NCBI GenBank assembly: GCA_049319825.1
Contig: JBMORT010000009.1
Span: 3,349 to 67,348, forward strand
Direction: 5' to 3'
Source of the DNA: Patescibacteria group bacterium
Lineage (GTDB): Bacteria; Patescibacteriota; Patescibacteriia; UBA11705; DATKZF01
DNA: 64,000 nt
Shown here piece by piece: positions 17,997 to 52,638 of this stretch; within the stretch, counting starts at the first letter, position 1, and each line of letters starts with the position of its first letter. The notes beneath the pieces were generated by a model that ran no database searches, was not told the DNA's origin, and saw nothing but the letters and a program-made list of their open reading frames with translations. The position numbers were made by a program, and so were the translations under genes.

Positions 17997-18033
17997 CTAT
18001 AATAGGCAACAATTAAGCCATTAACGCAAATTA

Positions 18034-18061
18034 ACACTTCGGTTATTCCGAAGTGTTTTTT
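18034..18061 (+). terminator. Rho-independent terminator after secA
   Basis: CACTTCGGTTATTCCGAAGTG hairpin followed by TTTTTT. Confidence 0.75.
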
Positions 18062-18215
18062 GTTCTCTTATATTGTTGGCTATTATGGCTCGATATGTCT
18101 GCCGCACGATTTAATGAGGCCTCTGGCCTCGATTATCAACCTCCTGATAATCATCCGTGCGACAGATATATCGAAAAATAATAATCGACATGCTTGTCGA
18201 AAAAAAGGAGGAAAT

Positions 18216-18377
18216 ATGACGTTCAAACAAAAATTCGGCTATTCGTGGAAAAACAATGTCGAGGGGCGACGAATGACCGCCAAGCAGTGGTTATGGGATT
18301 TCGTTAAGTCGATAACGTGTTGCGTTATCGTGTTCGGCATAATCCTGCTGATAGTCATTTGGAGACGTAATAAATAA
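18216..18377 (+). CDS. Small membrane protein (first gene of the phage block)
   Basis: A strong SD AAGGAGG sits 6 nt before the ATG at 18216. A C-terminal TM is CCVIVFGIILLIVIW. Confidence 0.4.
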   Translation: MTFKQKFGYSWKNNVEGRRMTAKQWLWDFVKSITCCVIVFGIILLIVIWRRNK

Positions 18378-18400
18378 TTCGGCGACTTAGCTGTTCGCCG

Positions 18401-19246
18401 ATGAAAGGAGAAAACAATATGCGTTTACTTAACACGGGAGATCCGCAAGCAAAGCCTCCGGTGGTAATGCTTGTGTATGGCGAGGGTGGTGTCGGCAAGA
18501 CGACATTCACTTCCACGGCGCCAAAGCCGATTCTCGCCGATTGCGAGGGTGGGTCAAAGTATTTCGGCTTGCGAGGCATTTCGATGGACGTGGCCATGAT
18601 CGAGGGCTGGTCAGACATGAAGGATTTTTTAGAGCTGGCCAAAGGAGAAAAGTATGAAACGGTCGTGATTGATCCGATTGGCGAGCTTATGGACAAGCTC
18701 AAGAGATTCATGGTCGCCAAAGGTGATTCAAAATTGGTTCAAAAAGACGGGAGCCCGACAATGGCCGGCTGGGGCTGGCTAAAGAAGACGATGAGAGATT
18801 ATATCAAAGTCTTGCGAGATTCGGGCAAGCACGTGATCATCGTCGCTCACATCGACGAAAAATTCGACGAAGACAAAATGGTCAAACGGCCAATGATCGA
18901 AACCAAGATCAGCACGGAGCTGGTGAATATGGTTGATGTCGTGGCCTACATGACAGTCATCACGAATAACGGGGAAGACAAGAGAGTGTTGGTCGTCGAT
19001 CCGTCAAATGACAAATACACGGCCAAGGACCGGACCGGACAATTGGGCAAATACATCGAGCCGGATTTCACGAAGATTATTCATGCATGTCAAGGAACAA
19101 AAACTTTTTCGTGGTCGAAAAAAACCGAGAAAAAGGTTGAAAAAGTTGAGAAAAAAGAGGAAACTCCCCGGCCTACGGCCAAAGAAGAATTGCAAAAAAA
19201 GATTGAAAAATTAAAGAAAAAGGAGGTTGTATGTCCGAAAAAATAA
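18401..19246 (+). CDS. Phage RecA-like/Sak4-type P-loop ATPase with a K/E-rich tail
   Basis: Walker A GEGGVGKTTF and Walker B VIIVAHIDE. The SD is GAAAGGAG. Confidence 0.65.
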   Translation: MKGENNMRLLNTGDPQAKPPVVMLVYGEGGVGKTTFTSTAPKPILADCEGGSKYFGLRGISMDVAMIEGWSDMKDFLELAKGEKYETVVIDPIGELMDKLKRFMVAKGDSKLVQKDGSPTMAGWGWLKKTMRDYIKVLRDSGKHVIIVAHIDEKFDEDKMVKRPMIETKISTELVNMVDVVAYMTVITNNGEDKRVLVVDPSNDKYTAKDRTGQLGKYIEPDFTKIIHACQGTKTFSWSKKTEKKVEKVEKKEETPRPTAKEELQKKIEKLKKKEVVCPKK

Positions 19247-20013
19247 TCCAGCCGCTTTATAACGGCGAAGTCAAAATCGTATTCTATCCGGAAAGTCATC
19301 GCTACAAACTTGACGGAGAAAAAACTTATCTGGTCAGCGTAACGGCGGCGACTGGGATTCTGGATAAAAGCCGAGTCTTGATTCCGTGGGCTGTAGGATT
19401 GGCCGGGCAACACCTGAGGGAATATCTTGAAGACGCGAAAACAAATCAATTCACGAGAGAGGAATTATATCCGGTGATTGAGGAAGCGTTAAAACAGCAC
19501 GAAATCAAAAAAGAAAAAGCGGCAAATGTCGGAAGCAAAGTCCATGATTGGGTTGAGCGGTTTGCTATCGCGTGCCTGAATGATACTGAGAGGCCAGAAA
19601 TTAACGATATAGACGACGAACAGGTGCTTTTGGGAATCAATGCCTTTGTTGAGTGGTTCAACGCTCACAGCGTCAAATTTCACGCCACGGAGCGACTGCT
19701 CTTTTCGAGAGAGTTCGAATACGCGGGGATCACGGACGCCGTAGCCGAGATCGACAAAAAGAAATATCTGATTGATTACAAGACAAGCAAAGGGATTTAT
19801 TCGGAAATGTATTATCAGGTCGCCGGCTACTGGAAAGCGTACGAAGAAGAAACAAAAGACGAGCTGGCCGGGGCGATTATCTTGAAGTTCGGCAAGGAAG
19901 ACGGGAACTTTGAAACGAAAGAATTTACCAGAGAAGATTTACAAAAGAACTTTGAAATATTCGCCGCCTGCTTGGCGATAAAAAAGCGGGAAAAAGAATT
20001 ATATCGCAAATGA
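19231..20013 (+). CDS. PD-(D/E)XK family nuclease (Cas4/RecB-like phage exonuclease)
   Basis: The motif block GITDAVAEID...LIDYKTSK has the D...D/ExK signature of the family. 260 aa. Confidence 0.65.
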   Translation: MSEKIIQPLYNGEVKIVFYPESHRYKLDGEKTYLVSVTAATGILDKSRVLIPWAVGLAGQHLREYLEDAKTNQFTREELYPVIEEALKQHEIKKEKAANVGSKVHDWVERFAIACLNDTERPEINDIDDEQVLLGINAFVEWFNAHSVKFHATERLLFSREFEYAGITDAVAEIDKKKYLIDYKTSKGIYSEMYYQVAGYWKAYEEETKDELAGAIILKFGKEDGNFETKEFTREDLQKNFEIFAACLAIKKREKELYRK

Positions 20014-20014
20014 T

Positions 20015-20278
20015 ATGACGCTATACGACGACGCGAAATTGCTGTTGTCATACCAGCAAAAAATGAACAGCGATAAAGCCAAAAAAAAACGGCTTGAATT
20101 ACAAATCATCAGAAAAATGGGCAAAAAGAAGCGAATTGATATGAAAGACGTTTCACTTATCCGCCATGAGAACGGCGGTGTTCAGGCAAAAACAGGGTTG
20201 AAAAAATTCAGTCTATTCGGGTTTTTGCGGTTTCCCTGGGAGAGCAACAAAAAACCGCGGCAAACTACAACGCATTGA
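20015..20278 (+). CDS. Hypothetical phage protein
   Basis: 87 aa basic ORF. Confidence 0.35.
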   Translation: MTLYDDAKLLLSYQQKMNSDKAKKKRLELQIIRKMGKKKRIDMKDVSLIRHENGGVQAKTGLKKFSLFGFLRFPWESNKKPRQTTTH

Positions 20279-20460: not shown

Positions 20461-21285
20461 ATGTCAGACAAAATACAAATACAAGATGAGAGTGGAGATC
20501 GAAAATATTTCACTGTAATTCCGAATTATGTGCTTAATCACTCAACGATTTATGATCGAGAGGTTTATATCCAGATGAAACGAATCGCTGGAGAATCAGG
20601 GGAGGTTTGGATGAGCCAAACGAAATTAGCGAAACAATGTGGAATTAGCAAACCTCGGATCATTAAGGCCTTGCGTTATCTTTGCGAACACCAGTGGATC
20701 GAGAAAGTTGGTAAAAAGAAAACAAGTCCGGTAGATAGTCAAGGGACGGATGTTTACAAAATAGTAGATTTATGGGATTTGAATAATAATTTTTATCGAA
20801 AAAGTCAAGGGGTCGGTAAAAAAATAGACCGACAGGTCGGTAAACAATTAGGGGGGGGTCGGTCAAAATCCTGCACAGGGGTCGGTAAAAATCCTGCACA
20901 CAAAGAAGAACCAGTGAAGAAGAACCAAGAAGAAGATAACGTTAAGATATTATTATCTGCTGATAATAATATCTTGCAAGCTGACGCTTGCGACGACACA
21001 AAAGAAATAAATAGTCAAATAACGGAAATAATCACTTTGTTTCGAGATAATGTCAATCCGAATATCAATTACGGAAATAAAACATTTCGCAAAGCTACCA
21101 AGCAGATGATCGATAAATACGGATTCCAGGAATTAAAACGCGGAGTAGAGGCGTCAATTGCGGTGCAAGGCCAGCCTTACGCTCCCGTGATAACAACGCC
21201 TTATCAATTCCAGCTTAAAATGGGCGAGTTAAAAATCTATTTTGATAAAGAAAAAAATAAAACAAATAAATTCGGATCAATATGA
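20461..21285 (+). CDS. Putative phage replication initiator / winged-HTH DNA-binding protein
   Basis: Winged-HTH start MSQTKLAKQCGISKPRIIKALRYLCEHQWIEK. Iteron-like repeats lie inside the gene. Confidence 0.5.
   Translation: MSDKIQIQDESGDRKYFTVIPNYVLNHSTIYDREVYIQMKRIAGESGEVWMSQTKLAKQCGISKPRIIKALRYLCEHQWIEKVGKKKTSPVDSQGTDVYKIVDLWDLNNNFYRKSQGVGKKIDRQVGKQLGGGRSKSCTGVGKNPAHKEEPVKKNQEEDNVKILLSADNNILQADACDDTKEINSQITEIITLFRDNVNPNINYGNKTFRKATKQMIDKYGFQELKRGVEASIAVQGQPYAPVITTPYQFQLKMGELKIYFDKEKNKTNKFGSI
20808..20900 (+). repeat. Iteron-like direct repeats (candidate phage origin) inside the replication initiator gene
   Basis: GGTCGGTAAA at 20811, 20835 and 20879. The variant GGTCGGTCAA is at 20857. 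AATCCTGCACA occurs twice. The palindrome ACCGACAGGTCGGT is at 20827-20840. Confidence 0.6.
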
Positions 21286-21800: not shown

Positions 21801-22190
21801 ATGGTCCCCAAACACTTAGCCGCGGTGCAAAACGGCAATCTCAAAATGTTCTACCCCGAGCGTTATCAGCAATGGCTGAATAACCTGAATGGATTCGTGG
21901 AAGTGGTGGTGAAGCCGCGCCGGCATGATCGAAGCGATAAGCAGAATAATTATCTCTGGGGCGTAGTGTATAAGCTTATTTCCGAGCATACCGGATACAG
22001 CGACGAGGAAGTCCACTTGATTTTTAAGACGATGTTTCTGAAAAAAAGGATAGGCCAATTCGAGGTTGTGGGAAGCACTGCAAAACTCAATACCAAAGAA
22101 TTTACTGAATATATTAACAAAATAATCGACTGGGCCGCGCGGGAACTGCTGGTTGAAATTCCTTTGCCGGACGCCGTTGAATATGACTGA
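21801..22190 (+). CDS. Hypothetical phage protein
   Basis: 129 aa ORF. Confidence 0.45.
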   Translation: MVPKHLAAVQNGNLKMFYPERYQQWLNNLNGFVEVVVKPRRHDRSDKQNNYLWGVVYKLISEHTGYSDEEVHLIFKTMFLKKRIGQFEVVGSTAKLNTKEFTEYINKIIDWAARELLVEIPLPDAVEYD

Positions 22191-23560: not shown

Positions 23561-23791
23561 GTGGCAATCAGGGTTGTCTGTTGCGTATGCAGGGAAGTGC
23601 TGGCCTATAAGGACTGTTATACGCCAGGAGTGAAGACGAGCCATGGGTGGTGCGAGCCGTGCTTGCGAGAACACTGTCCTGAGGTGGCAGAGGAGGTGAT
23701 CGAATCATGCAAGACCGAGCCGAGGCCAAGCCAGTTGCAGCTCAAGCTGTGCGAATCATGTATTGCCTCGCGAAATGATTCGCAAGTTTGA
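23561..23791 (+). CDS. Cys-rich zinc-binding small protein (GC-rich islet)
   Basis: CCVCREV...CYTP...HGWCEPCLREHCP. Local GC content is far above the surroundings. Confidence 0.4.
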   Translation: MAIRVVCCVCREVLAYKDCYTPGVKTSHGWCEPCLREHCPEVAEEVIESCKTEPRPSQLQLKLCESCIASRNDSQV

Positions 23792-24668
23792 GAATAAAAG
23801 ACGCATAAACAATTTTATGCGTCGGTCAAAAAAACATTATTTAATATATATGCCAAAAGGTAAACAAGGATTTCAAAAAGGAAACAAGCTTGGCCATTCA
23901 AACAAGGGAAGAAAAATGTCAAGCGCGTTTAAAAAAGCAATAAGTTTAAGACAAACTGGTAGGAAATTATCAGAAAACTGGAAAAGAAATATAAGTGAAT
24001 CTTTGAAAAAAAAGACATATCTTAGATTGCCGTCTTGTCATTCTCAGGGATATATTTTGATTTATAATCCGAAACATATTTATTGTAATAAGGATGGATA
24101 TATTCCTGAGCATAGGTTCAAATTGGAATGTGAATTGGGAATTATCATAAATCCAGTTAAATTTATCGTGCATCATAAAGACGGAAATAAAAAAAACAAT
24201 AAGATAAATAATTTACAATTATTAACACGAAAAGATCATAGGAGATTACATGAGGGTTGGCTCAGAAAAATGGATGGTTGGTATAAGCATTGTCATTCCT
24301 GCGGTGTATTATTAAAAGTTTGTGAGGATAATTTTTATAAAAGAAAATCTGGAAAATTTATTTCATGGTGTAAGAATTGTAATAAAAATGTAGTTTACGA
24401 AAGACGGTTTAGAGAGAAAGAGAGGAGGATGGCGGATGAATGTTCAGCCCAAAAACGACATAACACATTACTTTTATTGTCATGTTTGCGGTCGTGTAGA
24501 ATTACACGAAAGGCTGGGCGTGATACAGACAGGCGATACGCAGACCAAGCAGAGGCTGGTGTTGGTGCAGTGGCAGTGTCCTCGTTGCGGAGACAAGTGC
24601 TATGTGCAGGAAAGGAAGTGAGAACGCGGGGCAGGCCAAGTCTTGCCCCCGAAAATTATGAAAAATAA
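23763..24668 (+). CDS. HNH homing endonuclease with NUMOD3-like motifs
   Basis: HNH core FIVHHKDGNKKNNKINNLQLLTRKDHRRLH. Two SxxxKxxISxxxK NUMOD3-like motifs are present (SSAFKKAISL, SENWKRNISESL). A C-terminal zinc knuckle is CHSCG...CKNCN. The last ~70 codons are GC-rich and look like read-through, so the true 3' end is uncertain. Confidence 0.65.
   Translation: MPREMIRKFENKRRINNFMRRSKKHYLIYMPKGKQGFQKGNKLGHSNKGRKMSSAFKKAISLRQTGRKLSENWKRNISESLKKKTYLRLPSCHSQGYILIYNPKHIYCNKDGYIPEHRFKLECELGIIINPVKFIVHHKDGNKKNNKINNLQLLTRKDHRRLHEGWLRKMDGWYKHCHSCGVLLKVCEDNFYKRKSGKFISWCKNCNKNVVYERRFREKERRMADECSAQKRHNTLLLLSCLRSCRITRKAGRDTDRRYADQAEAGVGAVAVSSLRRQVLCAGKEVRTRGRPSLAPENYEK
24436..24621 (+). CDS. Small zinc-ribbon protein (GC-rich islet), overlaps the tail of the HNH ORF in another frame
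   Basis: SD AGGAGGA 6 nt upstream. CHVCG...CPRCG double CxxC. Confidence 0.4.
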   Translation: MNVQPKNDITHYFYCHVCGRVELHERLGVIQTGDTQTKQRLVLVQWQCPRCGDKCYVQERK

Positions 24669-25260: not shown

Positions 25261-25406
25261 GGTCTTGGTCTTGGTCTCGGTCTGGGTCTGGGTCTGGGTC
25301 TCAGTCTTGGTCTTGGTCTTGGTCTCGGTCTTGGTCTTGGTCTCGGTCTTGGTCTGGGTCTCGGTCTTGGTCTGGGTCTCGGTCTTGGTCTGGGTTTTGG
25401 TCTCGG
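25261..25406. repeat. Hexanucleotide microsatellite (GGTCTN) x ~24
   Basis: Near-perfect period-6 tandem array. It encodes (GL)n on + and (RP/KP)n on -. Confidence 0.95.
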
Positions 25407-25595
25407 TAATTTTATGATATATAGACTTCGTGGCAAGGGAAAACTTAATAACAAAAAGCGATGGAAAAATCTAAATATTCTTTGTAAAAAGACTGAAAAA
25501 AGGCACGACCTCTTATGTCGGGGTAGGAATGAATCCTGATTATTATAATACGCATAAAAAATCTAAGAAGTGGTGGCAGATTTGGAAATAATTAT

Positions 25596-25871
25596 ATGAA
25601 AAAACAAAATAACATTTCAGAAGATAGAATTAAGTGGTTATGTGAAAATGTTAAGGGTTGGATGATATATGCAGGATTGCCAAGGCATAAAGATTGTAGG
25701 TTGATTTTAGAGTTTATTGATAAGGATGATTTTTTAGAGGTAGGCAAATTCGAGGTATGGGGAGATAAAGAGATGGACAAACATCAAAAAGCGGAAATTC
25801 AACACTTGAAAAATTTTGCGAAGGAATGTTTAATTTATGCGCGAGACGCAAAAAATATAATTAAAATATGA
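25596..25871 (+). CDS. Hypothetical phage protein
   Basis: 91 aa ORF. Confidence 0.4.
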   Translation: MKKQNNISEDRIKWLCENVKGWMIYAGLPRHKDCRLILEFIDKDDFLEVGKFEVWGDKEMDKHQKAEIQHLKNFAKECLIYARDAKNIIKI

Positions 25872-25899
25872 TTATTGATAATTCAAATAATTAAAATTT

Positions 25900-26199
25900 A
25901 TGAATGAAAAAATTAATCAACCTGATTTTATTGGTATGCCGGATAGGGATGTTTTATTGGGTGCCCTACACACCGCCCGGGTGGAGTGTTTATCGCAGAT
26001 AGCATTATTTACGACAAACAGAAAGTTTTTAGAAAAAAGACAATTTCGGGAAGGATTAAATCCAAAGCACAACAAGAATGAGTATCAAAAATTATTAGGA
26101 GAATTACAAAAACAAAAACGAAATTTAGAAACAACAGAAATTCAATTGGAAGCGATAAAAGAAGTAATCAAGGATGTTGGCAAGATTTTAGAAGAATAA
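25900..26199 (+). CDS. Hypothetical phage protein
   Basis: 99 aa ORF. Confidence 0.4.
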   Translation: MNEKINQPDFIGMPDRDVLLGALHTARVECLSQIALFTTNRKFLEKRQFREGLNPKHNKNEYQKLLGELQKQKRNLETTEIQLEAIKEVIKDVGKILEE

Positions 26200-26523
26200 A
26201 GTTATCCACTTGCATTATTTTTTATAATACTATAAGCAGAGATTAGTCAGGGGGATGATAATCTGTACGAAAGGCCTCGTTAAAGGACGGGGTTATTTTT
26301 GTTTAAAAATTGTAGTATTGCGCCTTCTTGAAAAAAGAAGGTTTGACAACGCATTTTGTCTTTCTCACAAAGCCTTTAACTCACTCTTTCGACCAGTGGG
26401 TTGAGGGCGCAAGACTATAACTTATGCCGTATAAAAAACCAAAAAAGGTTAAAGGGGGCTGCAAAATAATCAGATATAAATCCAAAGAAAAAGCAGCCCG
26501 CGCGGCCCGGGCCATAAAATAGT

Positions 26524-27169: not shown

Positions 27170-27171
27170 AT

Positions 27172-28764: not shown

Positions 28765-28766
28765 TT

Positions 28767-30545: not shown

Positions 30546-30548
30546 AAT

Positions 30549-30779: not shown

Positions 30780-30867
30780 ATTGACAATCAATAAACAGGG
30801 TTGAAATTCAAGGCGATCAGCTGAGCCTTGAAAGAGATTAGCTCAACCCTGTTCTCTTTCAAAAGCT

Positions 30868-30897
30868 CGGCAGATCACCTTGATCTGCCGTTTTTTT
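30868..30897 (+). terminator. Rho-independent terminator
   Basis: CGGCAGATCACCTTGATCTGCCG followed by TTTTTTT. A second hairpin AACAGGGTTGA...TCAACCCTGTT lies upstream. Confidence 0.8.
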
Positions 30898-31610: not shown

Positions 31611-31629
31611 ATAACTAAACATTTATCGT

Positions 31630-43723: not shown

Positions 43724-46700
43724 ATGTTTCAGGGTTTATTTACGCAATCAAAAACAGTAGCTACAAATCAGAAAACGGGGGGGACTGCAAAGCCCTCTTT
43801 TTCTGGTTTGTTTAGTAATAGAGGGGAACAAAAAGCTCAAAAAAACAATAAATTTGCTGGAGCGGTTATCAGCGCTGATCAAAAAAAGGTCGGGATGTTT
43901 AAAGATTTATTTAAGGTTGGGAAAAAAGGATATGAACGGGCTGGTGATATAGCCAGTAAAAAATGGAGCGAGACGAAAGAATTTGTAAAAAAATATCCGA
44001 CCCCACTTGAGTATATATCTCAAAGGAAATATGAGGGGTGGGCCGGACAAAATAAAAGTTTATCAATTCGGAAACAATATGGATTCGCACTGCCGGAAAT
44101 AACCGATTTAACAAAATCGGGGTTTGATCCCGAATTATTGGAAAAAGCGAATGACTTTAAAAGTATTCCATTAAGACATAAAATAACTCAATTTTCTCTG
44201 CGTACTCAAACGCAATTAGTGGATCAAGTATCAAGAAGTTTTGCTTTTACTACGGATTATATAATGAAAGACCCTGTTCGCGCGGCCGCATTACGAGATA
44301 TGGCAAAGAATCCTTCGATTTTGGGGGGATTTAAAGCCGGGGCTACTTACGCTGCTGGGAAGTTTGTAGAAAAAACAAATACGGGAAAAATGTTAAAAGA
44401 TAAATGGGTTAATTTTTATGATGGCCTCAAAGAAAAAGGGATTATTCCAACAGATAAGGCAGTCCAGCTTGCGAATACAATGAAGCAATTACCATATATG
44501 CAGAATAGAAAAGAATGGGAAGGTGCTCCACTAAAAGATAAAATGACAAAATATTTAGGAGAAACTTTATATAATCTTGGACCAAGTTTATTTGCGTCTG
44601 TGGCGACTTATGCCGCCAGTCCGTCTTTTGGTTTTTCCGTAACGGCCAGTTCAACCGCATATGATGTAAAAGAAGATGCCATAAGATATGGCGTTGATGA
44701 AAAAAAAGCTGAAAATTTGGGATTAATAACGGGTTTGTTGGTAGCGTCGCTTGATAAGATTGTGCCGGATAAAGCTTTCTCGAAGAATATAAAAAATAAA
44801 TTCATCGGAAACTTTGCAAAAAGGATTATAAAAAGTAATGTGCTTGAAGCCGGAACGGAAATGGGACAGGAGAATATTCAAATTTTAGCTGAAGCGACTT
44901 TCAGGGATGATTTGGGTTGGGACGAAATCAAGACGCGCAATGCGATGGCGGCTTTGGGTGGGTTGGCCGGTGGTAGTGCAATGGAATCAATAAGCACGTT
45001 TAGTAATACAGTCCAGAGAGACGCGCTTTTTGAGGATATACGAAATATAAAACCCGGATTTACAGTAGAAGAGGTTTATGATGATAATTTAATGAATGAG
45101 GCGAAAAAATATAAAACGGCAGAGGATTTTATTGTAGCGGCTGAAAATAAAAAGATTGATGTATCTTCTATTGCAGAATGGTCGGATTTAAAATTTTCTG
45201 ATTTGGGGAAAATAGGAAATATTAAAACAAAAAGTCCGATATTTAAAAAGAAAGTGAAAGATGTTTCAACCGAGATATACGAAAAAACGGCACGGGAAAT
45301 TTTTGAGAATGCAAAAAAGAATGGGGAAAGTTGGGCCAAAAACAGAAGATATGAAAGCGTGTTTTCGGAAGCATTCGCCCGTGCAACAGAAAAGTTGACT
45401 CGTGGAGGTAGAATTGGAGAAAAGGAAGTATTGGATGGTTGGAGTAGAAAGGTATTAAAAGAAATATGGACTACAGCACAATATAAAACAAAATCACCTT
45501 CTGACACAAAACGTGCTCTGTCTGAAGACCGCCTCGTCAATGTTAATAATAAAACTCATAAATACAAGAGTGTGAAGGAGCAAGTAAAAATACCTTATGC
45601 AAAGTCGCTTATACAAAAAGCATTTGATAAAGACTTGCCAAACAAGACGCCAGAATATATCCAAGACTTACTTGTTAAATTACGAGATGAAGAAGCACGG
45701 GCAATTAGAAACGGGGTTGATACGAGCAAAACTTCTTATACACAGGCTGGATTTATCAACGAAAATCTCAAACAGGCACTTGACAACGTAATAAAAACCA
45801 AATCTCAACTCCAAGAAAAATTTGAATATAACACGCCAGCGATCATAGAAGCCCGGGAAAAGGCAATGTCTATTCCCGAGACAATAAATATACAAACAGA
45901 AGAACGAAATAATTTGAGAGATAAAATTGTTCGAGAATATTACGGAACGGGAGCAAAAAATAAAAACCGACGCGCCGATTTAGTTTTAGGCGTGCCTGCT
46001 TCTGGAAAATCGACCTTTTTTGGCGACCATTTAGTTAATAAGTATGGTTCACTATTGGTTGATTCTGACCAAATTAAAAAGATGTTGCCGGAATATGAAA
46101 ATGGCATTGGCGCCAGTTCGTTACACTTAGAGTCTGCTATGCTTGCCGATGATATTATCCTATCCAATGCGATACAAAATGGTGATAATGTTGTGTTGCC
46201 CAGACTTGGGAAAAACGAAAAAACGATGATTGAGCTTATAAATTTATTGAATGATTCGGGGTATGATGTTCACTTGCATTACATGGATTTACCAATAAAA
46301 GAAGCGGTCAAGCGTATAATATCAAGATTCAATGAAACGGGGCGTTTTGTTGACCCACAATTTTTAATAGAAAAAGTTGACGGAAAACCCAAAATAGTGT
46401 ATAATGCAATCAAGAGTAGAAAGGAGATTAGATCTTATGAAGCATACTCAAACGATGTTCCAAAAGGAACAAAGCCAAAACTCATCGAAAAGTCAGTATA
46501 TGACGCTGGACGAGATGGACGAATACAGCAATCTCGTGGCGATCAGGACTTTGCGAAGATTCGTAGCAAAAAAGAAAGGGAAATAAAACAGACTCAAAAA
46601 AAATCTGAAAATGAGTATTTTTCGGATAACGGGTCTGTTTTTGAATACAAAGAAATGTCTAAGGAAGAAACAAAAACAATGCAACAAGCATTTGGCGTAG

Positions 46701-49252
46701 TGGACGGAAAATCTGGATTTAGTTTTTCACAAGAAAAAGAAGAACAATATAAACAATTCAAAAAATTAAAATTAAGAAAATTAGACGAAATCGAAGATGC
46801 TACACAACTAAAAGAAAAATATCCGAACATGAATATTGATAATATTTTATATTCGCAAGAGCAATCAGGGGATGAAGTATTTGATGATTTTAAGGACAGA
46901 CTTTTAGCCGAGAGGGAAGCAAAAAAACAACAGATCGAAATACGGAGAGAAAAAGCTGAAAAAAACTGGGCCGTAAAATTGGAAAGGTCCAGAATTTACA
47001 AAACTATAATCAAAAGAAGGAAAGAGGTTAAAAATATAAAAGGTTTTTTCAAACTATCCGATGTTGACTTGAAACGCATAAATGGCAAGGATTGGCGATT
47101 TATGGATGAGGTTGAATATAAAATGTTTTTAGATGAAATAAAAAGAAAAGCCATGCAATTCACGGAAAAGAGAGAAGCTAAAAATAAATTGATGGCCACT
47201 ATACAAAGTAAAGAATTGAAAAATACCGACGATCTAAGAAAAGCAATGAAGCTCCCGTCAATTGATCAAATGACAGTCGCGCAAATGGAGCAATTCAATA
47301 AAGCACTCGAGCCGTACATGGAAGGAGATGTGTTTTTAAGTCAAAGGTTATTGGAGACTGTTGAAAATACAGAGCTGGGAGAATATAAAACATATAGGGA
47401 AGTTCAAGAACATCTATCTAAAAAGCTGGGGGTTCCGATCGCCGAATTAAAAGAAATTAAAGCCGGCTGGGTTGAAAAGTCTTTATATGACACTGCTTTG
47501 GCAAGGAAAAATCCATTTTATGCTTATGTTATAGATCAATTCAATAAATATGAATTGCAAGCTACAAAGGAATATTTGGATAGGAAAAAAGAAATAAATG
47601 TATTGGTTAATAAGGCAAGGAAATCCAGAGAACGAAGTTTGTTTGATAAACTTATTCCTACGGATAAAATCGTATTTGAATATTTGGAAAGCAACGATGC
47701 TTTAAAAGAGAAGTTATCGGAAGGAATGACAAAAGAAGAATTGGACTTGGCTGGATTTCTACAAGCTGATTTTTTCAGGATGCGCAATGAATTGATAAAA
47801 AAAGAAGCGTTAAAAAAATATAGAGAAAATTATATTACTCATGTGCAGCGAGGATTTTTAGAAGCGGTTAAGGATGGTGGATTAAAGGCTGGATTTGTGG
47901 AAATGTTTAAAAAATATAAATTTGAGGAAGCATATTTTAATATCATTGATGAAACCGGAAACGTCCTTGCGCTTGAAAAATTCTTTTCAAATTCATTACA
48001 TAGGACTGGGGAAGTCAGCCCTACTCAAAATGTCGCAAAAGCTTATTTAACTTATGTAAAATCTTTTGAAAAGAAGATGGCTTTAGATTCTGTAATTCCG
48101 GAAATAATGGCATATTCTCAGGTTTTAACAAAGGATGTCCGGACCCCGCGGGGACTTGTAAAAGATAAAACATTGATTACTTTTATGAAAAAGTGGATCA
48201 ATAATAAAAAGGGGCGGCGTCATAAATTATTTATTGAACAGGGAAATAGATTAGACGCTTTCATAAAAATATTAAATTCATTTATTACGCTTCGAGACCT
48301 GGGTTTTAATGTATATACTTCAATAGCTTCAAGGGTCGGAGAAAATGTAACAAATTTCGCTACGTTGGGCTTGAAAAAGTATGCTCTTGGTAGGGCGAGG
48401 GCAACCACTCAAAATGGCAGAAAAATATCAAAGCAATATGAAAATTTCATTGGAGAAAATCCGTTTTTAGATATAATACATGATTCAAGTCAGCACATTG
48501 GCGAAAAAACAATGAGGATGGCTTTTATTGGATTTGCGGACGCCACATATAGGTCAAATAAACACTTTCTCCTTGGATCAATGACGAAAGAAGAATATGA
48601 AAGCGGGGAAATTTCGGACCAAAGATTGGCTGAATTGAGACGCGAAATGGGCAAGTATAGAGTCGTGGAAGGAGCAAAATCAATAATGGGAAGCACGACT
48701 GAGGGCGAAATGTTTTTGAAGTATAGAAGTTGGGCCGTGCCGACTTTGATGACAACTTATAGCAATATCAAAACATTGATTAAAATGGCCGGACAGAAAA
48801 AATTCGCAAAAACTGAATTTTTAGAATTGACAAGAATAACACTTATATCAATAAGTATGTATTTATTAATGGCTACTTTGTTTGATGACGATGATGATAG
48901 CTTTTTGGGGAAACTGGCAACAAAGGCAAAAAGAGAATCGATGTCTTTAATTGAAGCATTAAAACCCACAACGTGGGCGAGTACATTTAGGATGCAAGCT
49001 TTTTTCATTGACTTGGCAAAAAACGTTATGTCAATGATCAATATGGAAAAATATAAAACAAAAGAGGGATATAAGGGGTGGGAGGGATTGAAAAAAACAT
49101 TAAAGCCGACTATGGTCAGTCAGATACAAGGATTTTTTGGAAACGAAAAAGAAGACGAAAAGTCTTCTGCGTTGCCAAGCCTGCCCAAATTACCGTCCCT
49201 TCCTCAATTACCCGGCTTGCCGGCGTTGCCGTCTTTACCTTCCTTACCATAA
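43724..49252 (+). CDS. Giant virion/ejection-type protein (1842 aa) with an embedded zeta-toxin-like P-loop kinase domain and a C-terminal (LPxLP)n repeat
   Basis: Walker A GVPASGKST. The LVDSDQIKKMLPEY and ASSLHLESAMLADD blocks (nt ~45950-46420) fit the zeta-toxin/PezT UNAG-kinase fold. C-terminal TM helices are ITLISISMYLLMATLF followed by a DDDDD stretch. The tail is LPSLPKLPSLPQLPGLPALPSLPSLP. Confidence 0.7.
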   Translation: MFQGLFTQSKTVATNQKTGGTAKPSFSGLFSNRGEQKAQKNNKFAGAVISADQKKVGMFKDLFKVGKKGYERAGDIASKKWSETKEFVKKYPTPLEYISQRKYEGWAGQNKSLSIRKQYGFALPEITDLTKSGFDPELLEKANDFKSIPLRHKITQFSLRTQTQLVDQVSRSFAFTTDYIMKDPVRAAALRDMAKNPSILGGFKAGATYAAGKFVEKTNTGKMLKDKWVNFYDGLKEKGIIPTDKAVQLANTMKQLPYMQNRKEWEGAPLKDKMTKYLGETLYNLGPSLFASVATYAASPSFGFSVTASSTAYDVKEDAIRYGVDEKKAENLGLITGLLVASLDKIVPDKAFSKNIKNKFIGNFAKRIIKSNVLEAGTEMGQENIQILAEATFRDDLGWDEIKTRNAMAALGGLAGGSAMESISTFSNTVQRDALFEDIRNIKPGFTVEEVYDDNLMNEAKKYKTAEDFIVAAENKKIDVSSIAEWSDLKFSDLGKIGNIKTKSPIFKKKVKDVSTEIYEKTAREIFENAKKNGESWAKNRRYESVFSEAFARATEKLTRGGRIGEKEVLDGWSRKVLKEIWTTAQYKTKSPSDTKRALSEDRLVNVNNKTHKYKSVKEQVKIPYAKSLIQKAFDKDLPNKTPEYIQDLLVKLRDEEARAIRNGVDTSKTSYTQAGFINENLKQALDNVIKTKSQLQEKFEYNTPAIIEAREKAMSIPETINIQTEERNNLRDKIVREYYGTGAKNKNRRADLVLGVPASGKSTFFGDHLVNKYGSLLVDSDQIKKMLPEYENGIGASSLHLESAMLADDIILSNAIQNGDNVVLPRLGKNEKTMIELINLLNDSGYDVHLHYMDLPIKEAVKRIISRFNETGRFVDPQFLIEKVDGKPKIVYNAIKSRKEIRSYEAYSNDVPKGTKPKLIEKSVYDAGRDGRIQQSRGDQDFAKIRSKKEREIKQTQKKSENEYFSDNGSVFEYKEMSKEETKTMQQAFGVVDGKSGFSFSQEKEEQYKQFKKLKLRKLDEIEDATQLKEKYPNMNIDNILYSQEQSGDEVFDDFKDRLLAEREAKKQQIEIRREKAEKNWAVKLERSRIYKTIIKRRKEVKNIKGFFKLSDVDLKRINGKDWRFMDEVEYKMFLDEIKRKAMQFTEKREAKNKLMATIQSKELKNTDDLRKAMKLPSIDQMTVAQMEQFNKALEPYMEGDVFLSQRLLETVENTELGEYKTYREVQEHLSKKLGVPIAELKEIKAGWVEKSLYDTALARKNPFYAYVIDQFNKYELQATKEYLDRKKEINVLVNKARKSRERSLFDKLIPTDKIVFEYLESNDALKEKLSEGMTKEELDLAGFLQADFFRMRNELIKKEALKKYRENYITHVQRGFLEAVKDGGLKAGFVEMFKKYKFEEAYFNIIDETGNVLALEKFFSNSLHRTGEVSPTQNVAKAYLTYVKSFEKKMALDSVIPEIMAYSQVLTKDVRTPRGLVKDKTLITFMKKWINNKKGRRHKLFIEQGNRLDAFIKILNSFITLRDLGFNVYTSIASRVGENVTNFATLGLKKYALGRARATTQNGRKISKQYENFIGENPFLDIIHDSSQHIGEKTMRMAFIGFADATYRSNKHFLLGSMTKEEYESGEISDQRLAELRREMGKYRVVEGAKSIMGSTTEGEMFLKYRSWAVPTLMTTYSNIKTLIKMAGQKKFAKTEFLELTRITLISISMYLLMATLFDDDDDSFLGKLATKAKRESMSLIEALKPTTWASTFRMQAFFIDLAKNVMSMINMEKYKTKEGYKGWEGLKKTLKPTMVSQIQGFFGNEKEDEKSSALPSLPKLPSLPQLPGLPALPSLPSLP

Positions 49253-49449
49253 TCTTTCTCCAACGCTTTATAAACGGAATACCATGAAAAAATAAAGAAT
49301 ATTGGCAAGAGTATTTCTTTATAATTTCCTTTATCTGTAATAAGGAAAATAACAAAAAACCAGATACACGCTCCTATAAAACTTTTGATATATAATTTTT
49401 TTTGTGGGGACATATTATGATATTTTATAATTCGTATTCTCGATAACAA
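49204..49449 (-). CDS. Small two-TM membrane protein
   Basis: 81 aa. It overlaps the 3' end of the giant gene on the opposite strand. Confidence 0.35.
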   Translation of the reverse strand: MLSRIRIIKYHNMSPQKKLYIKSFIGACIWFFVIFLITDKGNYKEILLPIFFIFSWYSVYKALEKDYGKEGKDGNAGKPGN

Positions 49450-49799
49450 TTATCAATTTTAGTTTGTTTATCAGCATCGGCTTTATTCCATGTGCTTGTA
49501 GCGGCCGAAATTGTGCCGTCATCGTTTTTAATGCCATTTAATTCCATATAAGTCCAATAACTTTCCTCAACTTTACTTAAACAATTATCAAGGCTCCATT
49601 TTTTCATTTTTTGTTTAAATTCCGTAGCTTCTTTTTCTTTTTGTTCGGCTTCAAAAATTGATTTTTCTTGATCTATTTGCATTTGTGTTTGTTTTTCTAT
49701 GGAATTTTGTTTGTTTAATTGAATGAGAATAAGACTGCCGCCAATGATCAACCCGCACATAATTATAGCTATTGATAAAATGATATATTTTTTATCCAT
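49425..49799 (-). CDS. Membrane-anchored coiled-coil protein (minus-strand moron-like gene)
   Basis: 124 aa. N-terminal TM ILSIAIIMCGLIIGGSLILI. It is driven by the minus-strand promoter at 49843-49871. Confidence 0.45.
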   Translation of the reverse strand: MDKKYIILSIAIIMCGLIIGGSLILIQLNKQNSIEKQTQMQIDQEKSIFEAEQKEKEATEFKQKMKKWSLDNCLSKVEESYWTYMELNGIKNDDGTISAATSTWNKADADKQTKIDNCYREYEL

Positions 49800-49907: not shown

Positions 49908-50495
49908 TTATCCACTTATCAGATTGAGTAATAGGCAATAAATTTGATATAGTGTGAATATAACAAAGACATTCCCTGAAAAGGGAACGTCTTTGCGAAT
50001 CCTAAGAAGCCGCCATTTTGGCGTCTTCTTCTATTTTCTTGCGTTTCCAGTAATCTGGATCAGCGAGAAAACAGAAGGCGCGACGGCCGACTTCTCTTGC
50101 CCATAATACTCGTCCATTGCGGAGAGTAATGTAGGGCCGGCAAATTATTTCTGCCATATTTTATGGTTAAATCCCAATAAACTATGTCAGAAACGAGGGA
50201 ATATTTCGTCTTCTGAGAATAGTTGGTATAGGAAACCTAATCCCAAAAGACAAAAAAAATCCCTTAGCCCGTATCCTGCAACCAACATTTTGGAAGAAAA
50301 TGATTGGCCGTAGTTGTCCTGGCAACCATTTAAGCTATGGCGCAGGATACCAGCTAAGGGATTCTTACTCTGGAATAACGGGCTTCATAGATAGAAAGAG
50401 GACAACTTTCTTTCTATGAACTGTAATTATAATTTATCAAAAGTTTTAAAATATGTCAAATATCCACAGCGAAAACGGCTAAAAATAGGGCAATA

Positions 50496-50524
50496 TTGAC
50501 AAATCGGTTTGCGTAAAGTATAAT
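50496..50524 (+). promoter_or_regulatory. Consensus sigma70 promoter (TTGACA-17-TATAAT)
   Basis: TTGACA 50496-50501, 17-nt spacer, TATAAT 50519-50524. It reads into the antisense of the tRNA. Confidence 0.55.
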
Positions 50525-50567
50525 GCTTTGTTATGGTAGAAGTGGAGACAAAAAAATACCTAGATAA

Positions 50568-50640
50568 AGGGGCGGGCAGACTCGAACTGCCAACTTAGGG
50601 ATTAGTAGTCCCTTGATCTGTCCAATTGATCTACGCCCCC
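50568..50640 (-). tRNA. tRNA with a canonical cloverleaf but an atypical anticodon loop CUACUAA (nominal anticodon ACU)
   Basis: The reverse strand folds into a complete cloverleaf: GGGGGCG TA GATC AATTGGACA GATC A AGGGA CUACUAA UCCCU AAGUU GGCAG UUCGAGU CUGCC CGCCCC U. The D-loop GG, the T-loop TTCGAGT, a 5-bp anticodon stem and a short variable loop are all present. Position 1-72 is a G-U wobble pair. CCA is not encoded. Confidence 0.6.
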
Positions 50641-50654
50641 TTATCTGGGTATTT

Positions 50655-50830
50655 TTATTTTAAACAAAACACGTCAATGGCAGACACTTCGCAGGGCGTT
50701 CCGGACATTCCGTTTACGACCCCACGATTTACCACTCGCGAGGCTCTTTCCTAAGAAAGTTAGCCCGACGAAGTGGCCACCATTAACGTGTTATTGACCT
50801 TGAAGTCTGCCATGCCTTGGTAAAGGCAAA
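50655..50830 (-). ncRNA. Candidate structured RNA upstream of (co-oriented with) the tRNA
   Basis: On the minus strand the 5' end ATGGCAGAC pairs with the 3' end GTCTGCCAT, enclosing about 125 nt. Nested complementarity includes GGCT...AGCC, CTTTC-TTAG-GAAAG and CCAC...GTGG. No ORF is present. Confidence 0.3.
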
Positions 50831-50951
50831 AATATTTCTTAATAATATTATATCACGCCTAAAAATCTTCTGCAAATAATTGTGGACAGCCGACTTGACA
50901 AACGATATTATCAATGTTAAATTATAAATAATAAAATAACAATGCGGTGAA

Positions 50952-50985
50952 CCCCTCTATATTTTCGAGGGGTTTTATTTTTCAA
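50952..50985 (+). terminator. Hairpin plus T-run terminator
   Basis: CCCCTC TATATTTTC GAGGGG followed by TTTTATTTTT. Confidence 0.5.
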
Positions 50986-51019
50986 AAAGTGTCCAACGAA
51001 TGTCCAAAAAATAAAACGA

Positions 51020-51208
51020 TTATAGAAATTTTTTCAAATTCTTTTTTAATTCTTCGCAGTTGATGTCTTTCGTGTAGTGATAATAAGTAGAGCGAGAAAG
51101 ACCAAGAAAATCAATAATATCCTGCGTTTTGATATTCTCATTGTCTTTAAGGCAATGCAAAATGCAGGCGCATATTTTTATAATTTTTTCTCTTTTTTCT
51201 TTGGTCAT
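51020..51208 (-). CDS. Small HTH regulator (excisionase/repressor-like)
   Basis: MTKEKREKIIKICACILHCLKDNENIKTQDIIDFLGLSRSTYYHYTKD. The start is at 51206-51208. TGTCCAA repeats flank the gene. Confidence 0.5.
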   Translation of the reverse strand: MTKEKREKIIKICACILHCLKDNENIKTQDIIDFLGLSRSTYYHYTKDINCEELKKNLKKFL

Positions 51209-51235
51209 AATGTCCAAGGAGTGTCCAAAAACGAC

Positions 51236-51265
51236 TTGACGATATTTTAAAATCAATGTTAAAAT
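51236..51265 (+). promoter_or_regulatory. Putative integrase promoter
   Basis: TTGACG 51236-51241, 17-18-nt spacer, TAAAAT-like -10. Tandem TGTCCAA repeats sit immediately upstream at 51211-51228. Confidence 0.4.
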
Positions 51266-51268
51266 CCA

Positions 51269-52192
51269 TTGTTATTTCAATTATACAATATGCGGTTAAG
51301 TTTGGCAATAAAACAATTTACGGAGTGGCGCGCGTTGAAGGTCGGGCAAAACACGAATCAAGGCTACGAATTGGTTTTGAAGCAATTTTGTTTGTTTATG
51401 AAAAACTGCGAGATTGAAGATGTGCAATTATCGCATATTGTTGAATGGTTTTCGATGATGCAAGAGCTCGGCTGGGATTCAAATAGTTTTGTAATCAAAT
51501 CAACCGCGTTGCGCAAATTTTTTGAGTTTAATAAAAAGCAGGGATTTGAGGTTTTGGATCCATGGTTTATTTTCACGCCCAAGGCAAAATTCAAAATTCC
51601 TCGCATTATTACCGAGGAAAACTACCAGAAGTTATTATCAGCCATACCTGATAATAACGATCCCCGTCATATACGAAACAAGGCTATAATTTCGCTTCTG
51701 TGGGACACGGGAGCCAGAAACGGGGAAATTGTCAGCTTAGATATTCAAGGCCTCGATTTGGTCAATTTCAAGGCTTTAATCTACACAGAAAAGTCGAAAG
51801 GGGCAAGGCCGGTGAGGGAGATGTTCTGGACAGAGGAAACGAATAAAAATCTCCTGCGATGGATTGACCGGCGAGAGCATTTGTCGCAAAAAATGAAATG
51901 GATTGATCCCGAGGCTCTTTTCGTCTGCGTCAGCTTCCATGCCGGAGAGAGATTGACGATCAAGGGTGTTGGAGAAATGCTACGCCGGTATTCTAATCAA
52001 GCAGGAATCGAAACGATGAACGCGCATAGTTTCCGTCATCACTTGGGCCGCGAAATTATTAAACGGGGCGGGACTAATGCCGATGTGATGAATGTTCTCG
52101 GCCATGCGACGCTGGAAAGCACGAAGCCCTATACATGGCTTGAAAATAAAGAAATCGAGAAGCGATATAGGAGTCTCAAGTTATCCACATAA
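51269..52192 (+). CDS. int: Tyrosine-type site-specific recombinase (phage integrase)
   Basis: 307 aa. An N-terminal SAM-like core-binding domain and a C-terminal catalytic domain with R (WDTGARNGE), HxxR (HSFRHHLGR) and the Y of TKPYTWL. Confidence 0.85.
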   Translation: MLFQLYNMRLSLAIKQFTEWRALKVGQNTNQGYELVLKQFCLFMKNCEIEDVQLSHIVEWFSMMQELGWDSNSFVIKSTALRKFFEFNKKQGFEVLDPWFIFTPKAKFKIPRIITEENYQKLLSAIPDNNDPRHIRNKAIISLLWDTGARNGEIVSLDIQGLDLVNFKALIYTEKSKGARPVREMFWTEETNKNLLRWIDRREHLSQKMKWIDPEALFVCVSFHAGERLTIKGVGEMLRRYSNQAGIETMNAHSFRHHLGREIIKRGGTNADVMNVLGHATLESTKPYTWLENKEIEKRYRSLKLST

Positions 52193-52198
52193 TAAAGG

Positions 52199-52453
52199 TT
52201 GGCAATAATTTTAAAGGGTGTTATCATACATATAGATAATAAAGAAAATTACTATATGTCTAAAGCATTCGGGTCAAAACCAGATTATAAAAGTATTAAA
52301 AAGGCGAAAAGATTAAGAAAAAGGGGGCTATCTTATCGGAATATAGTTAAAGTAATGGGGCGTCAAGATATCAAGACGATATTCCGCTGGATCAATAATT
52401 ACGACGAAAATCTTAAACGAATCAAAGTGGATAACTCGCTTGACAAAGTATAA
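52199..52453 (+). CDS. Small HTH-like basic protein
   Basis: KRLRKRGLSYRNIVKVMGRQDIKTIFRWIN. The start is possibly at 52256. Confidence 0.3.
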   Translation: MAIILKGVIIHIDNKENYYMSKAFGSKPDYKSIKKAKRLRKRGLSYRNIVKVMGRQDIKTIFRWINNYDENLKRIKVDNSLDKV

Positions 52454-52638
52454 AAGGTTGGCTATAATACAATCAAGAACATTGAAAACTTAAAATCAAA
52501 ACAAAGGATAACTGAGGTGTTTATTCCATGCGGTTCTGGCCAATAATATAAAAAATGCTGCGGTGGCTAATAAAAAGTCCGAAAAAGACTCAATGTTTTG
52601 TTGCTTTTAAAATGAAAAAGAAGCTTGTTAAGCTTCTT

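Follow-up and report, generated by a model that had tools for sequence, protein, structure and literature searches.

The genes secA and secD, which are neighbours in related bacteria, lie 35.2 kb apart in a contig of a Patescibacteria group bacterium (NCBI GenBank assembly GCA_049319825.1, contig JBMORT010000009.1), and the question raised by this locus is what has come to separate them. The window analysed here is a stretch of 64,000 nucleotides of that contig (positions 3,349 to 67,348, forward strand), and coordinates below refer to the window unless another genome is named. An earlier reading made from the letters alone (the sequence-only reading) had proposed a prophage of ~34 kb. The present analysis upholds this proposal: the block at ~17973-52557 is very probably a temperate tailed phage, likely short-tailed, integrated in a Patescibacteria chromosome. 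It encodes a large terminase subunit (TerL), a portal, a capsid protein and an integrase, and a boundary repeat duplicates the 3' end of the target gene.

An insertion between secA and secD

The two genes said to bracket the block, secA (ending at 17996) and secD (starting at 53222), were both confirmed by Pfam. secA occupies 15204-17996 on the plus strand and contains all five SecA Pfam domains (SecA_DEAD, E 8e-128), including the SEC-C motif. Its product of 930 amino acids (aa) has a complete motif, CPCGSGKKYKKCC, and the open reading frame (ORF) is intact despite the insertion. The right-hand neighbours are as follows.

53222-55249, plus strand: host secD (Pfam SecD), which adjoins secA in relatives
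55251-56168, plus strand: host secF (Pfam SecF)

A SecA scan covered one genome per species in 185,579 species, and the best 80 loci were taken as related genomes. All 80 belong to metagenome-assembled genomes (MAGs) of the Patescibacteria/Parcubacteria type, which bears out the earlier view of the host as a small-genome bacterium resembling the Candidate Phyla Radiation (CPR); the closest relative is a Candidatus Falkowbacteria MAG. In 32 of these genomes secD is found downstream of secA; the gap is 53-1463 bp in 20 of them and never exceeds 9.6 kb. In particular, it measures 742 bp in L002 and 605 bp in L005, the closest relatives, compared with 35.2 kb here. When the block proteins (n=45) were searched by tblastn within 10 kb on either side of secA in the 80 related genomes, no match was obtained, nor did a hidden Markov model built from 120 integrase homologues find any integrase near secA in these genomes. 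Comparison with genomes lacking the insertion, a check recommended by the sequence-only reading, thus yielded secA and secD no more than 1.5 kb apart in 20 of 32 cases and no block proteins; the element is directly seen to be absent at secA in relatives, the nearest of which shares only 65% SecA identity. Moreover, the GC content of the block is 39.5%, as against 44.1% and 44.0% in its flanks.

Ends of the element and probable replacement of the secA tail

Comparison of both boundaries by k-mers and by local alignment revealed the direct repeat that had been expected there.

17952-17987, no strand: attL, the left-hand copy of an imperfect direct repeat of 36 bp, whose exact core of 11 bp, TATAAAAAATG, lies at 17973-17983
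52526-52561, no strand: attR, the right copy of the repeat, which is a secA pseudo-tail, with the core at 52547-52557
18033-18057, plus strand: intrinsic-terminator hairpin (10-pair stem, then a T run) on the phage side of attL, now located after the secA stop

The two copies are identical at 30 of 36 bases. Their alignment score of 42 compares with a maximum of 28 in 1940 random windows, and within the window nothing but attR matches the secA tail strongly, the next best score being 26, which is within noise. The ends proposed earlier, 18000 and 52600, were accurate to within ~50 bp of the repeat, but the insertion lies inside the last secA codons and not just after them. Other exact matches of 10-11 bp between the ends were rejected as candidates, as their count is near the rough chance expectation (~3 for uniform composition, more if the sequence is AT-rich). 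A tRNA gene was likewise rejected as the attachment site, since the integrase would fall outside an element that ended at the tRNA 3' end and no repeat supports such a site.

The repeat also bears on what has become of the secA tail. Translation of attR gives IPCGSGQ, stop, YKKCCGG, stop, a frame-broken SEC-C motif, and past the core the codons of the working secA read TGT TGC ATA AAA TAA, that is, C-C-I-K-stop. Glycine stands straight after the last Cys/His pair in 75 of 78 relatives (CHG in 50, CCG in 25); the CCIK-stop ending of the working gene is unique in comparison with these 78, whereas the pseudo-tail at attR ends in CCGG-stop. Because the live CCIK is atypical and the pseudo-tail keeps the family-typical CCG, the sequence indicates that the final codons of secA (C-C-I-K-stop) were supplied by the phage. 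SEC-C-like coding segments were not found in the fetched parts of related viral contigs. Site-specific integration with a crossover inside the core is the simplest reading of both junctions, and the element would accordingly span about 17973-52557 (34.6 kb). The integrase gene ends about 330 bp before attR, and what appears as the old host terminator is found at 52616-52640, past the original tail.

A perfect (12/12) match to the sigma-70 consensus promoter is located at the extreme end of the prophage (52440-52468, plus strand) and faces outward over attR. In the lysogen, the sequence it faces is the secA pseudo-tail, followed by the terminator at 52616-52640; in a circular phage, it would read over attP toward the early genes.

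Both junctions were checked with Logan contigs, which were built from run SRR32167788 by a different assembler. Up to 25368 the window is represented by contig 4938, positions 25366-34928 correspond to contig 27217, and contig 8604 begins at 35763; in the stretches compared there are 0 mismatches in 20,165 and 20,360 bases, and attL and attR are both crossed. The breaks fall in a (GGTCTT)24 microsatellite and inside a gene with three carbohydrate-binding repeats (see below), neither at a junction. These contigs cross the junctions and are interrupted by internal repeats only, which speaks against a chimeric join at ~18 or ~52.6 kb, the error that the sequence-only reading had singled out for scrutiny; over both junctions they are identical to the window base for base.

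Packaging, head and connector genes

From 18.2 to 49.25 kb, the ORFs are closely packed and all on the plus strand; a minus-strand segment follows at 49.4-51.26 kb, and then two plus-strand ORFs. The earlier description of a block on one strand therefore applies to the first of these parts and fails for the minus-strand segment. The ORFs of the block are uninterrupted under the standard code. A recognisable family was found for ~18 of ~45, so the statement that most genes have none was fair, and the order that had been given (recombination, replication, HNH, terminases, portal, scaffold, capsid, virion and lysis proteins, giant protein, integrase) was recovered. The genes for packaging, the head and the connector are as follows.

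26795-27169, plus strand: candidate small terminase subunit (TerS), with a weak Terminase_2 match (E 0.0022) and a helix-turn-helix (HTH), 33% identical to the ORF in the same slot of IMG/VR relatives
27172-28764, plus strand: TerL (phrog_2, E 7.5e-30), 32-33% identical (E ~1e-70) to TerL of 933W-type Shiga toxin (Stx) phages
28767-30545, plus strand: portal of SU10-like type (Pfam match of a homologue; AlphaFold model and Foldseek)
30948-31610, plus strand: scaffold candidate, an acidic coiled-coil protein between portal and capsid, assigned from position, 29-40% identical to ORFs in the same slot, no family match
31630-32820, plus strand: major capsid protein of the HK97 fold family (phrog_267, E 4.6e-28; PDB 9jwb, E 3.2e-9)
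38503-39180, plus strand: head-to-tail adaptor of SU10 type (PF24175 SU10_adaptor, E 1.7e-8, 35.6 bits against a cut-off of 27)

All three hallmarks of the Caudoviricetes (TerL, portal and HK97-type major capsid protein) are thus present, and the identities of TerL and the capsid protein come directly from family matches. The portal ORF, of 592 aa and located between TerL and the scaffold-like ORF, has no direct family match, and searches of it against PDB sequences, as a single sequence and as profiles of 8 and 76 sequences, gave no usable match. Among its 373 homologues, one is named 'Portal protein' by UniRef, and another, P0294 (40% identity), matches PF23899 SU10_portal with E 1.3e-9. The AlphaFold model obtained from 76 sequences has a pLDDT (predicted local distance difference test) of 83.9 and a pTM (predicted template modelling score) of 0.80. 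In a Foldseek search, its top match is the SU10 portal 7z44 (E 9.5e-15, ~12% sequence identity), and the other 49 matches listed are nearly all podovirus portals (T7, N4, P22, Pan3, VP1 and others). These three lines, namely a named homologue, a Pfam match through a homologue and a predicted structure, show the 592-aa ORF to be the portal.

Probable surface, lysis, tail and internal virion proteins

The genes on both sides of the adaptor gene encode probable surface, lysis and virion proteins.

33766-34797, plus strand: fibre- or spike-like protein (weak Phage_depo_C match, E 0.0012; hydrophobic N-terminus)
34803-36149, plus strand: protein with three CBM_4_9 repeats (CBM_4_9, E 3.8e-6; hydrophobic N-terminus)
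36153-36410, 37800-38234 and 38236-38499, plus strand: three small membrane proteins, holin-like candidates (transmembrane segments)
36913-37797, plus strand: M23 peptidase endolysin (PF01551, E 5.1e-15; endolysin PHROGs)
39285-40943, plus strand: Kelch-motif beta-propeller protein (Kelch_6, E 2.4e-6)
41598-43721, plus strand: 707-aa protein with a CHAP peptidoglycan-hydrolase domain (PF05257, E 2.1e-6)
43724-49252, plus strand: 1842-aa protein with a P-loop kinase domain of the zeta-toxin/polynucleotide kinase (PNK)-like type at aa 747-889 (PF06414, E 2.6e-11; AAA_33, E 4.5e-7)

The C-terminus of the pair at 33766-36149 is 44% identical to an 805-aa ORF in relatives, and the CBM_4_9 protein is likely a receptor-binding or surface protein. 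The endolysin and the small membrane proteins would form a lysis cassette (36153-38499), in which the latter may act as holins. The gene order and position of the beta-propeller protein, compared with T7 and SU10, make it a candidate nozzle or tail protein. By analogy with the T7 gp11-gp16 order and from their position, the 707-aa and 1842-aa proteins are probably internal virion proteins that are ejected.

Pfam and PHROGs scans found no family of tail tube, sheath or tape-measure proteins. Given the SU10-type portal and adaptor, the mostly podovirus relatives of the capsid, the 933W-type TerL and the lack of a tube, sheath or tape-measure match, a short-tailed virion with an SU10/T7-like connector is predicted as the most likely morphology.

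The 1842-aa protein, annotated at NCBI as 'zeta toxin family protein', is Lys/Glu-rich in its middle part and also contains a single hydrophobic segment and, at the C-terminus, a (P-x-L-P) repeat. Its kinase domain carries the Walker A motif GVPASGKST, and a PDB match to Pnkp1 (E 2e-4) is stronger than that to zeta. A zeta toxin-antitoxin system, in which a stand-alone toxin of ~280 aa is paired with an epsilon-type antitoxin, was considered and rejected, as the domain sits in a 1842-aa protein of the virion module and PADLOC gave no match. The domain shares the P-loop kinase fold family with zeta toxin and is not a toxin-antitoxin system. PADLOC, run on the giant protein and the small accessory ORFs, reported no defence system, and a literature search on zeta-toxin domains in polyvalent phage proteins returned nothing usable. 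A kinase inside a probable ejected protein is unusual.

Recombination and replication genes

The left part of the element, between attL and the packaging genes, encodes proteins of recombination and replication.

18213-18377, plus strand: small membrane protein, the first prophage ORF (ATG after a GGAGG ribosome-binding site; hydrophobic C-terminal segment)
18401-19246, plus strand: Sak4-like single-strand annealing ATPase, AAA_24 (PF13479, E 2.9e-36; phrog_124, E 2.4e-52)
19231-20013, plus strand: recombination exonuclease (phrog_298, E 9.3e-30)
20461-21285, plus strand: replication initiator with a lambda O-like HTH (PF13730, E 2.4e-8; phrog_270, E 1.8e-11)
21801-22190, plus strand: NinB/Orf recombination mediator (phrog_72, E 8.7e-19)
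23763-24668, plus strand: HNH endonuclease ORF, domain at aa 75-166 (PF13392, E 4.3e-9; phrog_7545, E 1e-15)

Tandem repeats (23 bp x2 and 14 bp x2.5) lie inside the initiator gene at 20855-20936. By their resemblance to the iterons inside lambda gene O, they are a likely, putative origin.

The HNH ORF runs ~400 nt beyond its domain into a GC-rich stretch. In another frame, its 3' part is overlapped by an ORF at 24436-24621, whose 61-aa product contains two CxxC pairs forming a Zn ribbon, and it is this short ORF, not the HNH ORF, that was chosen by the automatic gene caller. Further on, at 25261-25407 and upstream of the packaging genes, lies a hexanucleotide microsatellite, (GGTCTT) x 24.5, which, provided that the TTG-start ORF around it is genuine, would be translated as (Gly-Leu)n; it is present in no fetched relative.

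Integrase and lysogeny-side region

The region between the giant gene and attR contains the integrase and the genes that may control lysogeny.

49425-49799, minus strand: small membrane or secreted protein (N-terminal hydrophobic segment; no family match)
50566-50641, minus strand: phage-borne tRNA with anticodon ACU and a short variable arm (ARAGORN; Rfam tRNA, 61.6 bits)
51020-51256, minus strand: small HTH protein, encoded divergently to the integrase (weak matches to HTH_24/HTH_23 and to repressor PHROGs)
51269-52192, plus strand: tyrosine integrase (PF00589, E 8.7e-24; phrog_1, E 9e-22)
52199-52453, plus strand: 84-aa HTH protein beside the integrase (weak HTH_29 match, E 0.0066)

The integrase is a member of a large clade from Patescibacteria, with more than 350 homologues at 52-58% identity, some of which are named XerC/XerD in their source. 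Three contexts of homologues were inspected: an island containing a relaxase, a transposase and a serine recombinase, an island with a methylase, and, beside host genes, one end of a tailed but unrelated prophage (L101). A housekeeping XerC/XerD role was rejected, since the homologues were in mobile-element settings in all three contexts and none lies near secA in relatives. Because its homologues lie in mobile elements, the protein is treated as a mobile-element integrase that is exchanged between elements.

Regulation can be sketched from position. The 84-aa HTH protein is a candidate excisionase or directionality factor, and the divergent HTH protein at 51020-51256 a candidate repressor; divergent promoter-like sites are found at 51236-51308. 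Over 49.2-53.3 kb, there are 30 sigma-70-like promoter matches, compared with 13.7 +/- 3.7 in shuffled sequences, and two of them are perfect (12/12).

As regards the tRNA(ACU), A20 and the short variable arm set it apart from canonical tRNA-Ser, and its body is tRNA-Trp-like (76% identity to Salmonella tRNA-Trp genes). The codons AGT, AGA and AGG are 1.5-2 times commoner in the phage genes than in the flanking host genes. A search of IMG/VR with the anticodon stem-loop gave three chance matches, none of them a tRNA.

Two non-coding stretches of the same region, 50158-50430 and 50642-50846, have unusually stable predicted RNA folds (z -7.8 and -6.0 against shuffles). One fold is a long structured leader of a 51-aa ORF; the other is multi-branched, closed by a stem of ~25 bp, and lies directly upstream of the tRNA. 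On the plus strand, a perfect promoter at 50496-50524 and a terminator at ~50950-50985 could also frame a transcript of ~450 nt, and the folds may belong to either strand. At a permissive threshold, Rfam found only the tRNA in 49.75-51.35 kb.

Proposed mechanism

According to the proposed mechanism, the integrase (51269-52192) would recombine attP with an attB in the last codons of secA, with the crossover within the core TATAAAAAATG. The phage arm to the right of the core would supply C-C-I-K-stop and the terminator, and the original tail, C-C-G-G-stop, would be displaced and left as a pseudo-copy at attR beside the integrase. The new tail keeps the four zinc-binding cysteines of SEC-C, the last two of them presumably phage-encoded, and secA would therefore stay functional. 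In the lysogen, the minus-strand segment with the HTH protein, the tRNA and the small membrane protein is probably the part that is expressed. Upon induction, if the phage is inducible, the integrase, perhaps together with the 84-aa HTH protein, would excise the circle; the lambda-O-like initiator would start replication with host enzymes, TerS and TerL would package the genome through the portal, and the M23 peptidase and the holins would lyse the cell.

Alternative explanations

Several observations weigh against an intact, site-specifically integrated, short-tailed phage. The att repeat is imperfect and exact over 11 bp only, so that the crossover position is one that we infer. Exact searches for the predicted attP junction, CCATGCGGTTCTGGCCAATAATATAAAAAATGTTGCATAAAATAACTATAATAGGC, in IMG/VR and JGI metagenome contigs, and for the predicted attB (the empty site), CCCTGCGGCTCTGGCAAAAAGTATAAAAAATGCTGCGGTGGCTAATAAAAAGTCCG, in JGI metagenome contigs, found neither. 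The Logan contigs do not branch at the junctions, as an empty site or a circle would require, and thus give no sign of excision in the sample; moreover, the NCBI and Logan assemblies may come from the same reads, in which case they are independent in assembler and not necessarily in data. Pfam and PHROGs provided no confident repressor or excisionase family, only weak HTH matches. As for the tail type, the single-sequence AlphaFold model of the beta-propeller protein (39285-40943) reached a pLDDT of only 32.7 and was discarded, and the assignment partly reflects what the family scans did not find.

Some of these points would also fit a cryptic, or 'grounded', prophage, which can no longer excise or form particles and is carried as chromosomal cargo. 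Besides the missing attB and attP junctions and the unbranched contigs, this explanation, a possible if rather unlikely one, can draw on the differences between the att copies (6 of 36 positions), on the odd 3' extension of the HNH ORF overlapped by another ORF and on the abnormal tRNA anticodon. However, differences between the att arms are expected for B/P and P/B' hybrid sites and need not represent decay, and the absence of the junction strings from unrelated metagenomes says little. The phage is apparently complete, as every functional module is present, the ORFs are long and intact, and its size fits the 35-41 kb contigs of the closest capsid and portal homologues, which are putatively complete genomes.

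It has also to be considered that the block consists of two elements in tandem, an integrase-less phage at 18-49.3 kb and a small integrative island at 49.3-52.6 kb with the membrane protein, the tRNA, the HTH protein and the integrase. The strand switch at 49.3 kb and the occurrence of the integrase clade in many kinds of mobile elements are in keeping with such an arrangement, as is the observation that the contigs of the top 120 integrase homologues match none of those of the capsid and portal relatives by size, which points to a mosaic origin. Nevertheless, two elements are improbable: a third copy of the att site or of SEC-C was not found between the ends (the next best score is at noise level), an integrase and regulators at one end are the normal layout of a single temperate phage, and a homologous integrase likewise closes the tailed prophage in L101.

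An assembly or binning artefact, in which the genome of a free phage was wrongly placed between secA and secD, is suggested by the origin of the sequence from a metagenome-assembled genome and by the different GC content of the block; yet the contigs of a different assembler cross both junctions without mismatch over 20 kb each, both junctions lie in unique sequence and not in repeats, and a degenerate copy of the secA tail at the far end, beside an integrase, would not arise from a mis-join, all of which makes this explanation very improbable. Conserved chromosomal content, for instance a domesticated gene transfer agent or tailocin, for which nothing speaks beyond the lack of direct evidence of mobility, has hardly any probability left, as the block is missing at the locus in all 80 related genomes (an outcome that the sequence-only reading had named as the alternative to a prophage came out negative there), has its own replication, lysogeny and integration genes, usually lacking in domesticated systems, and has capsid and portal relatives mostly on phage-sized contigs.

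Phage relatives and comparison with known systems

The integrated temperate phage belongs to a group with many relatives. The capsid protein has 597 homologues at E <= 1e-10, many of them on contigs of 35-41 kb, as is also the case for portal homologues. A few homologues of the two proteins are on long contigs, for example one of 1.117 Mb at NCBI and one of 1.38 Mb assigned to a 'Patescibacteria group bacterium'. With 597 capsid and 373 portal homologues, some of them on long contigs, the phage group is common, with at least some members being prophages. IMG/VR relatives keep the order portal, scaffold, capsid and small protein, to which the adaptor is added in two loci; identities are 28-67%. 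A peptide-pattern scan of IMG/VR for TerL found nothing; TerL is not common to the capsid and portal relatives, and the modules are therefore mosaic. Compared with 50,697 deposited phage genomes, the capsid protein reaches 24-29% identity, mostly with podoviruses (Pelagibacter, Anabaena and Clostridium phages).

SU10, a Kuravirus, is the best PDB match of the portal model, and the element shares with it SU10_portal, through a homologue, and SU10_adaptor, above the cut-off. SU10 is a virulent phage of ~77 kb. In contrast to this likeness, portal identity is ~12%, TerL is nearest to the 933W type and the capsid is nearest to other podoviruses. Membership in Kuravirus was rejected in view of the ~12% identity to the SU10 portal and because the best capsid and TerL matches among the 50,697 phage records lie elsewhere.

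In T7, gp11 is the adaptor, gp12 the nozzle and gp13-16 are core proteins, of which gp16 carries a lytic transglycosylase and is ejected into the host. The order of adaptor, beta-propeller protein, 219-aa protein, 707-aa protein with a hydrolase domain and very large protein in the element parallels that of gp11-gp16. The parallel has no sequence match to the core proteins, so that the assignment is by position only, and it differs in that the CHAP hydrolase is in the second-largest protein, whereas the largest carries the zeta-toxin/PNK-like kinase domain, which T7 lacks.

With regard to integration, the closest parallel is e14 (and coliphage 21) at icd, where an essential gene likewise harbours, at its 3' end, a tyrosine-integrase element that brings along a near-copy of the gene's end. 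In E. coli, icd is described as staying intact, with the displaced pseudo-tail at the other junction (PMC6379469, citing Hill et al. 1989). In contrast, the target here is secA, ~4 codons are replaced instead of 163 bp, the host phylum and the phage type differ, and the secA element is known from sequence alone.

An older view held that genomes of this kind carry few prophage genes (PMC7137472). One recent survey describes 10 prophages (mean 43.7 kb) from MAGs of Paceibacteria, citing further ones from Absconditabacteria, Gracilibacteria and Saccharibacteria (PMC12455944); another linked 1,162 phages to 2,439 MAGs from groundwater, 63.8% of the phages being called temperate and the hosts including the class ABY1 (PMC12911398). 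The statement of the sequence-only reading that such phages are poorly described is thus only partly true now, given that these surveys list more than 1,000 (PMC12911398, PMC12455944). The element resembles the survey phages as an integrated member of the Caudoviricetes of ~35-45 kb in a small CPR genome; the latter differ in being called by software, and the accessible text of the surveys defines no att sites or target genes for them (PMC12455944; PMC12911398).

What is new here is the definition of the ends to the base pair and the replacement of the secA tail; Patescibacteria prophages themselves are already documented, and general prophage biology is left unchanged by the element. Base-pair resolution has been reached for few CPR/Patescibacteria prophages, and in most reports they are software calls on draft genomes. 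The element offers defined ends, a defined target in the final codons of the essential translocase gene secA, a logic of tail replacement, an apparently complete gene set and hundreds of uncultivated relatives, and it can serve as a reference genome for a widespread, unclassified group of phages with an SU10-type connector that is linked to CPR hosts. In addition, the predicted attB/attP pair and the small integrase constitute a candidate genetic tool for organisms that have almost none.

The secA tail as a possible recurrent attachment site

In 3 of the 78 related genomes, a second degenerate copy of the genome's own secA tail is found 0.5-1.1 kb downstream, and the two copies bracket small cargo. 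In L014 (12733-13315 of that locus), the insert is a single gene that reads on into the former SEC-C tail; the identities, 38/42, extend past the stop codon. In L060 (12766-13937), a HicA toxin (E 3e-16) and a partner gene lie between the secA-tail copies, and in L030 (2762-3302), there is a shorter remnant of a copy. All three loci have the look of scars, or of small cargo, at this attachment site. It is tentatively proposed that the 3' end of secA, encoding the SEC-C zinc-finger tail, is a recurrent attachment site of mobile elements across the Patescibacteria and that such elements carry replacement tails; a literature search on phage integration at the secA end gave nothing usable. If this proposal is true, secA in tRNA-poor, reduced genomes plays the role of integration hotspot that tRNA genes have elsewhere, and the C-termini of SecA proteins are chimeric records of past infections.

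Flanking host genes

According to Pfam, the left flank consists of murC, murB, hpf, four unmatched ORFs and secA, and the right flank of secD, secF, a GATase gene and genes for a sigma-70-like protein, a TrwB-like ATPase and a DUF2207 protein. Pfam matched none of the four ORFs between hpf and secA (12225-15047; 185, 159, 125 and 325 aa), and none of them has a homologue beside secA in the 80 related genomes, several of which have hpf directly upstream of secA; these ORFs are possibly a further small insertion specific to the lineage. On the host side of attR, ahead of secD, there is a 119-aa ORF (52639-52998, minus strand) that has no family match and is a singleton in a collection of 15 billion proteins. 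SecD holds an inserted peptidyl-prolyl isomerase (rotamase) domain of the PPIC type (E 5e-39), and since the SecD of L060 has, as judged by eye, a similar sequence in the PPIC region, this insertion is possibly a trait of the lineage.

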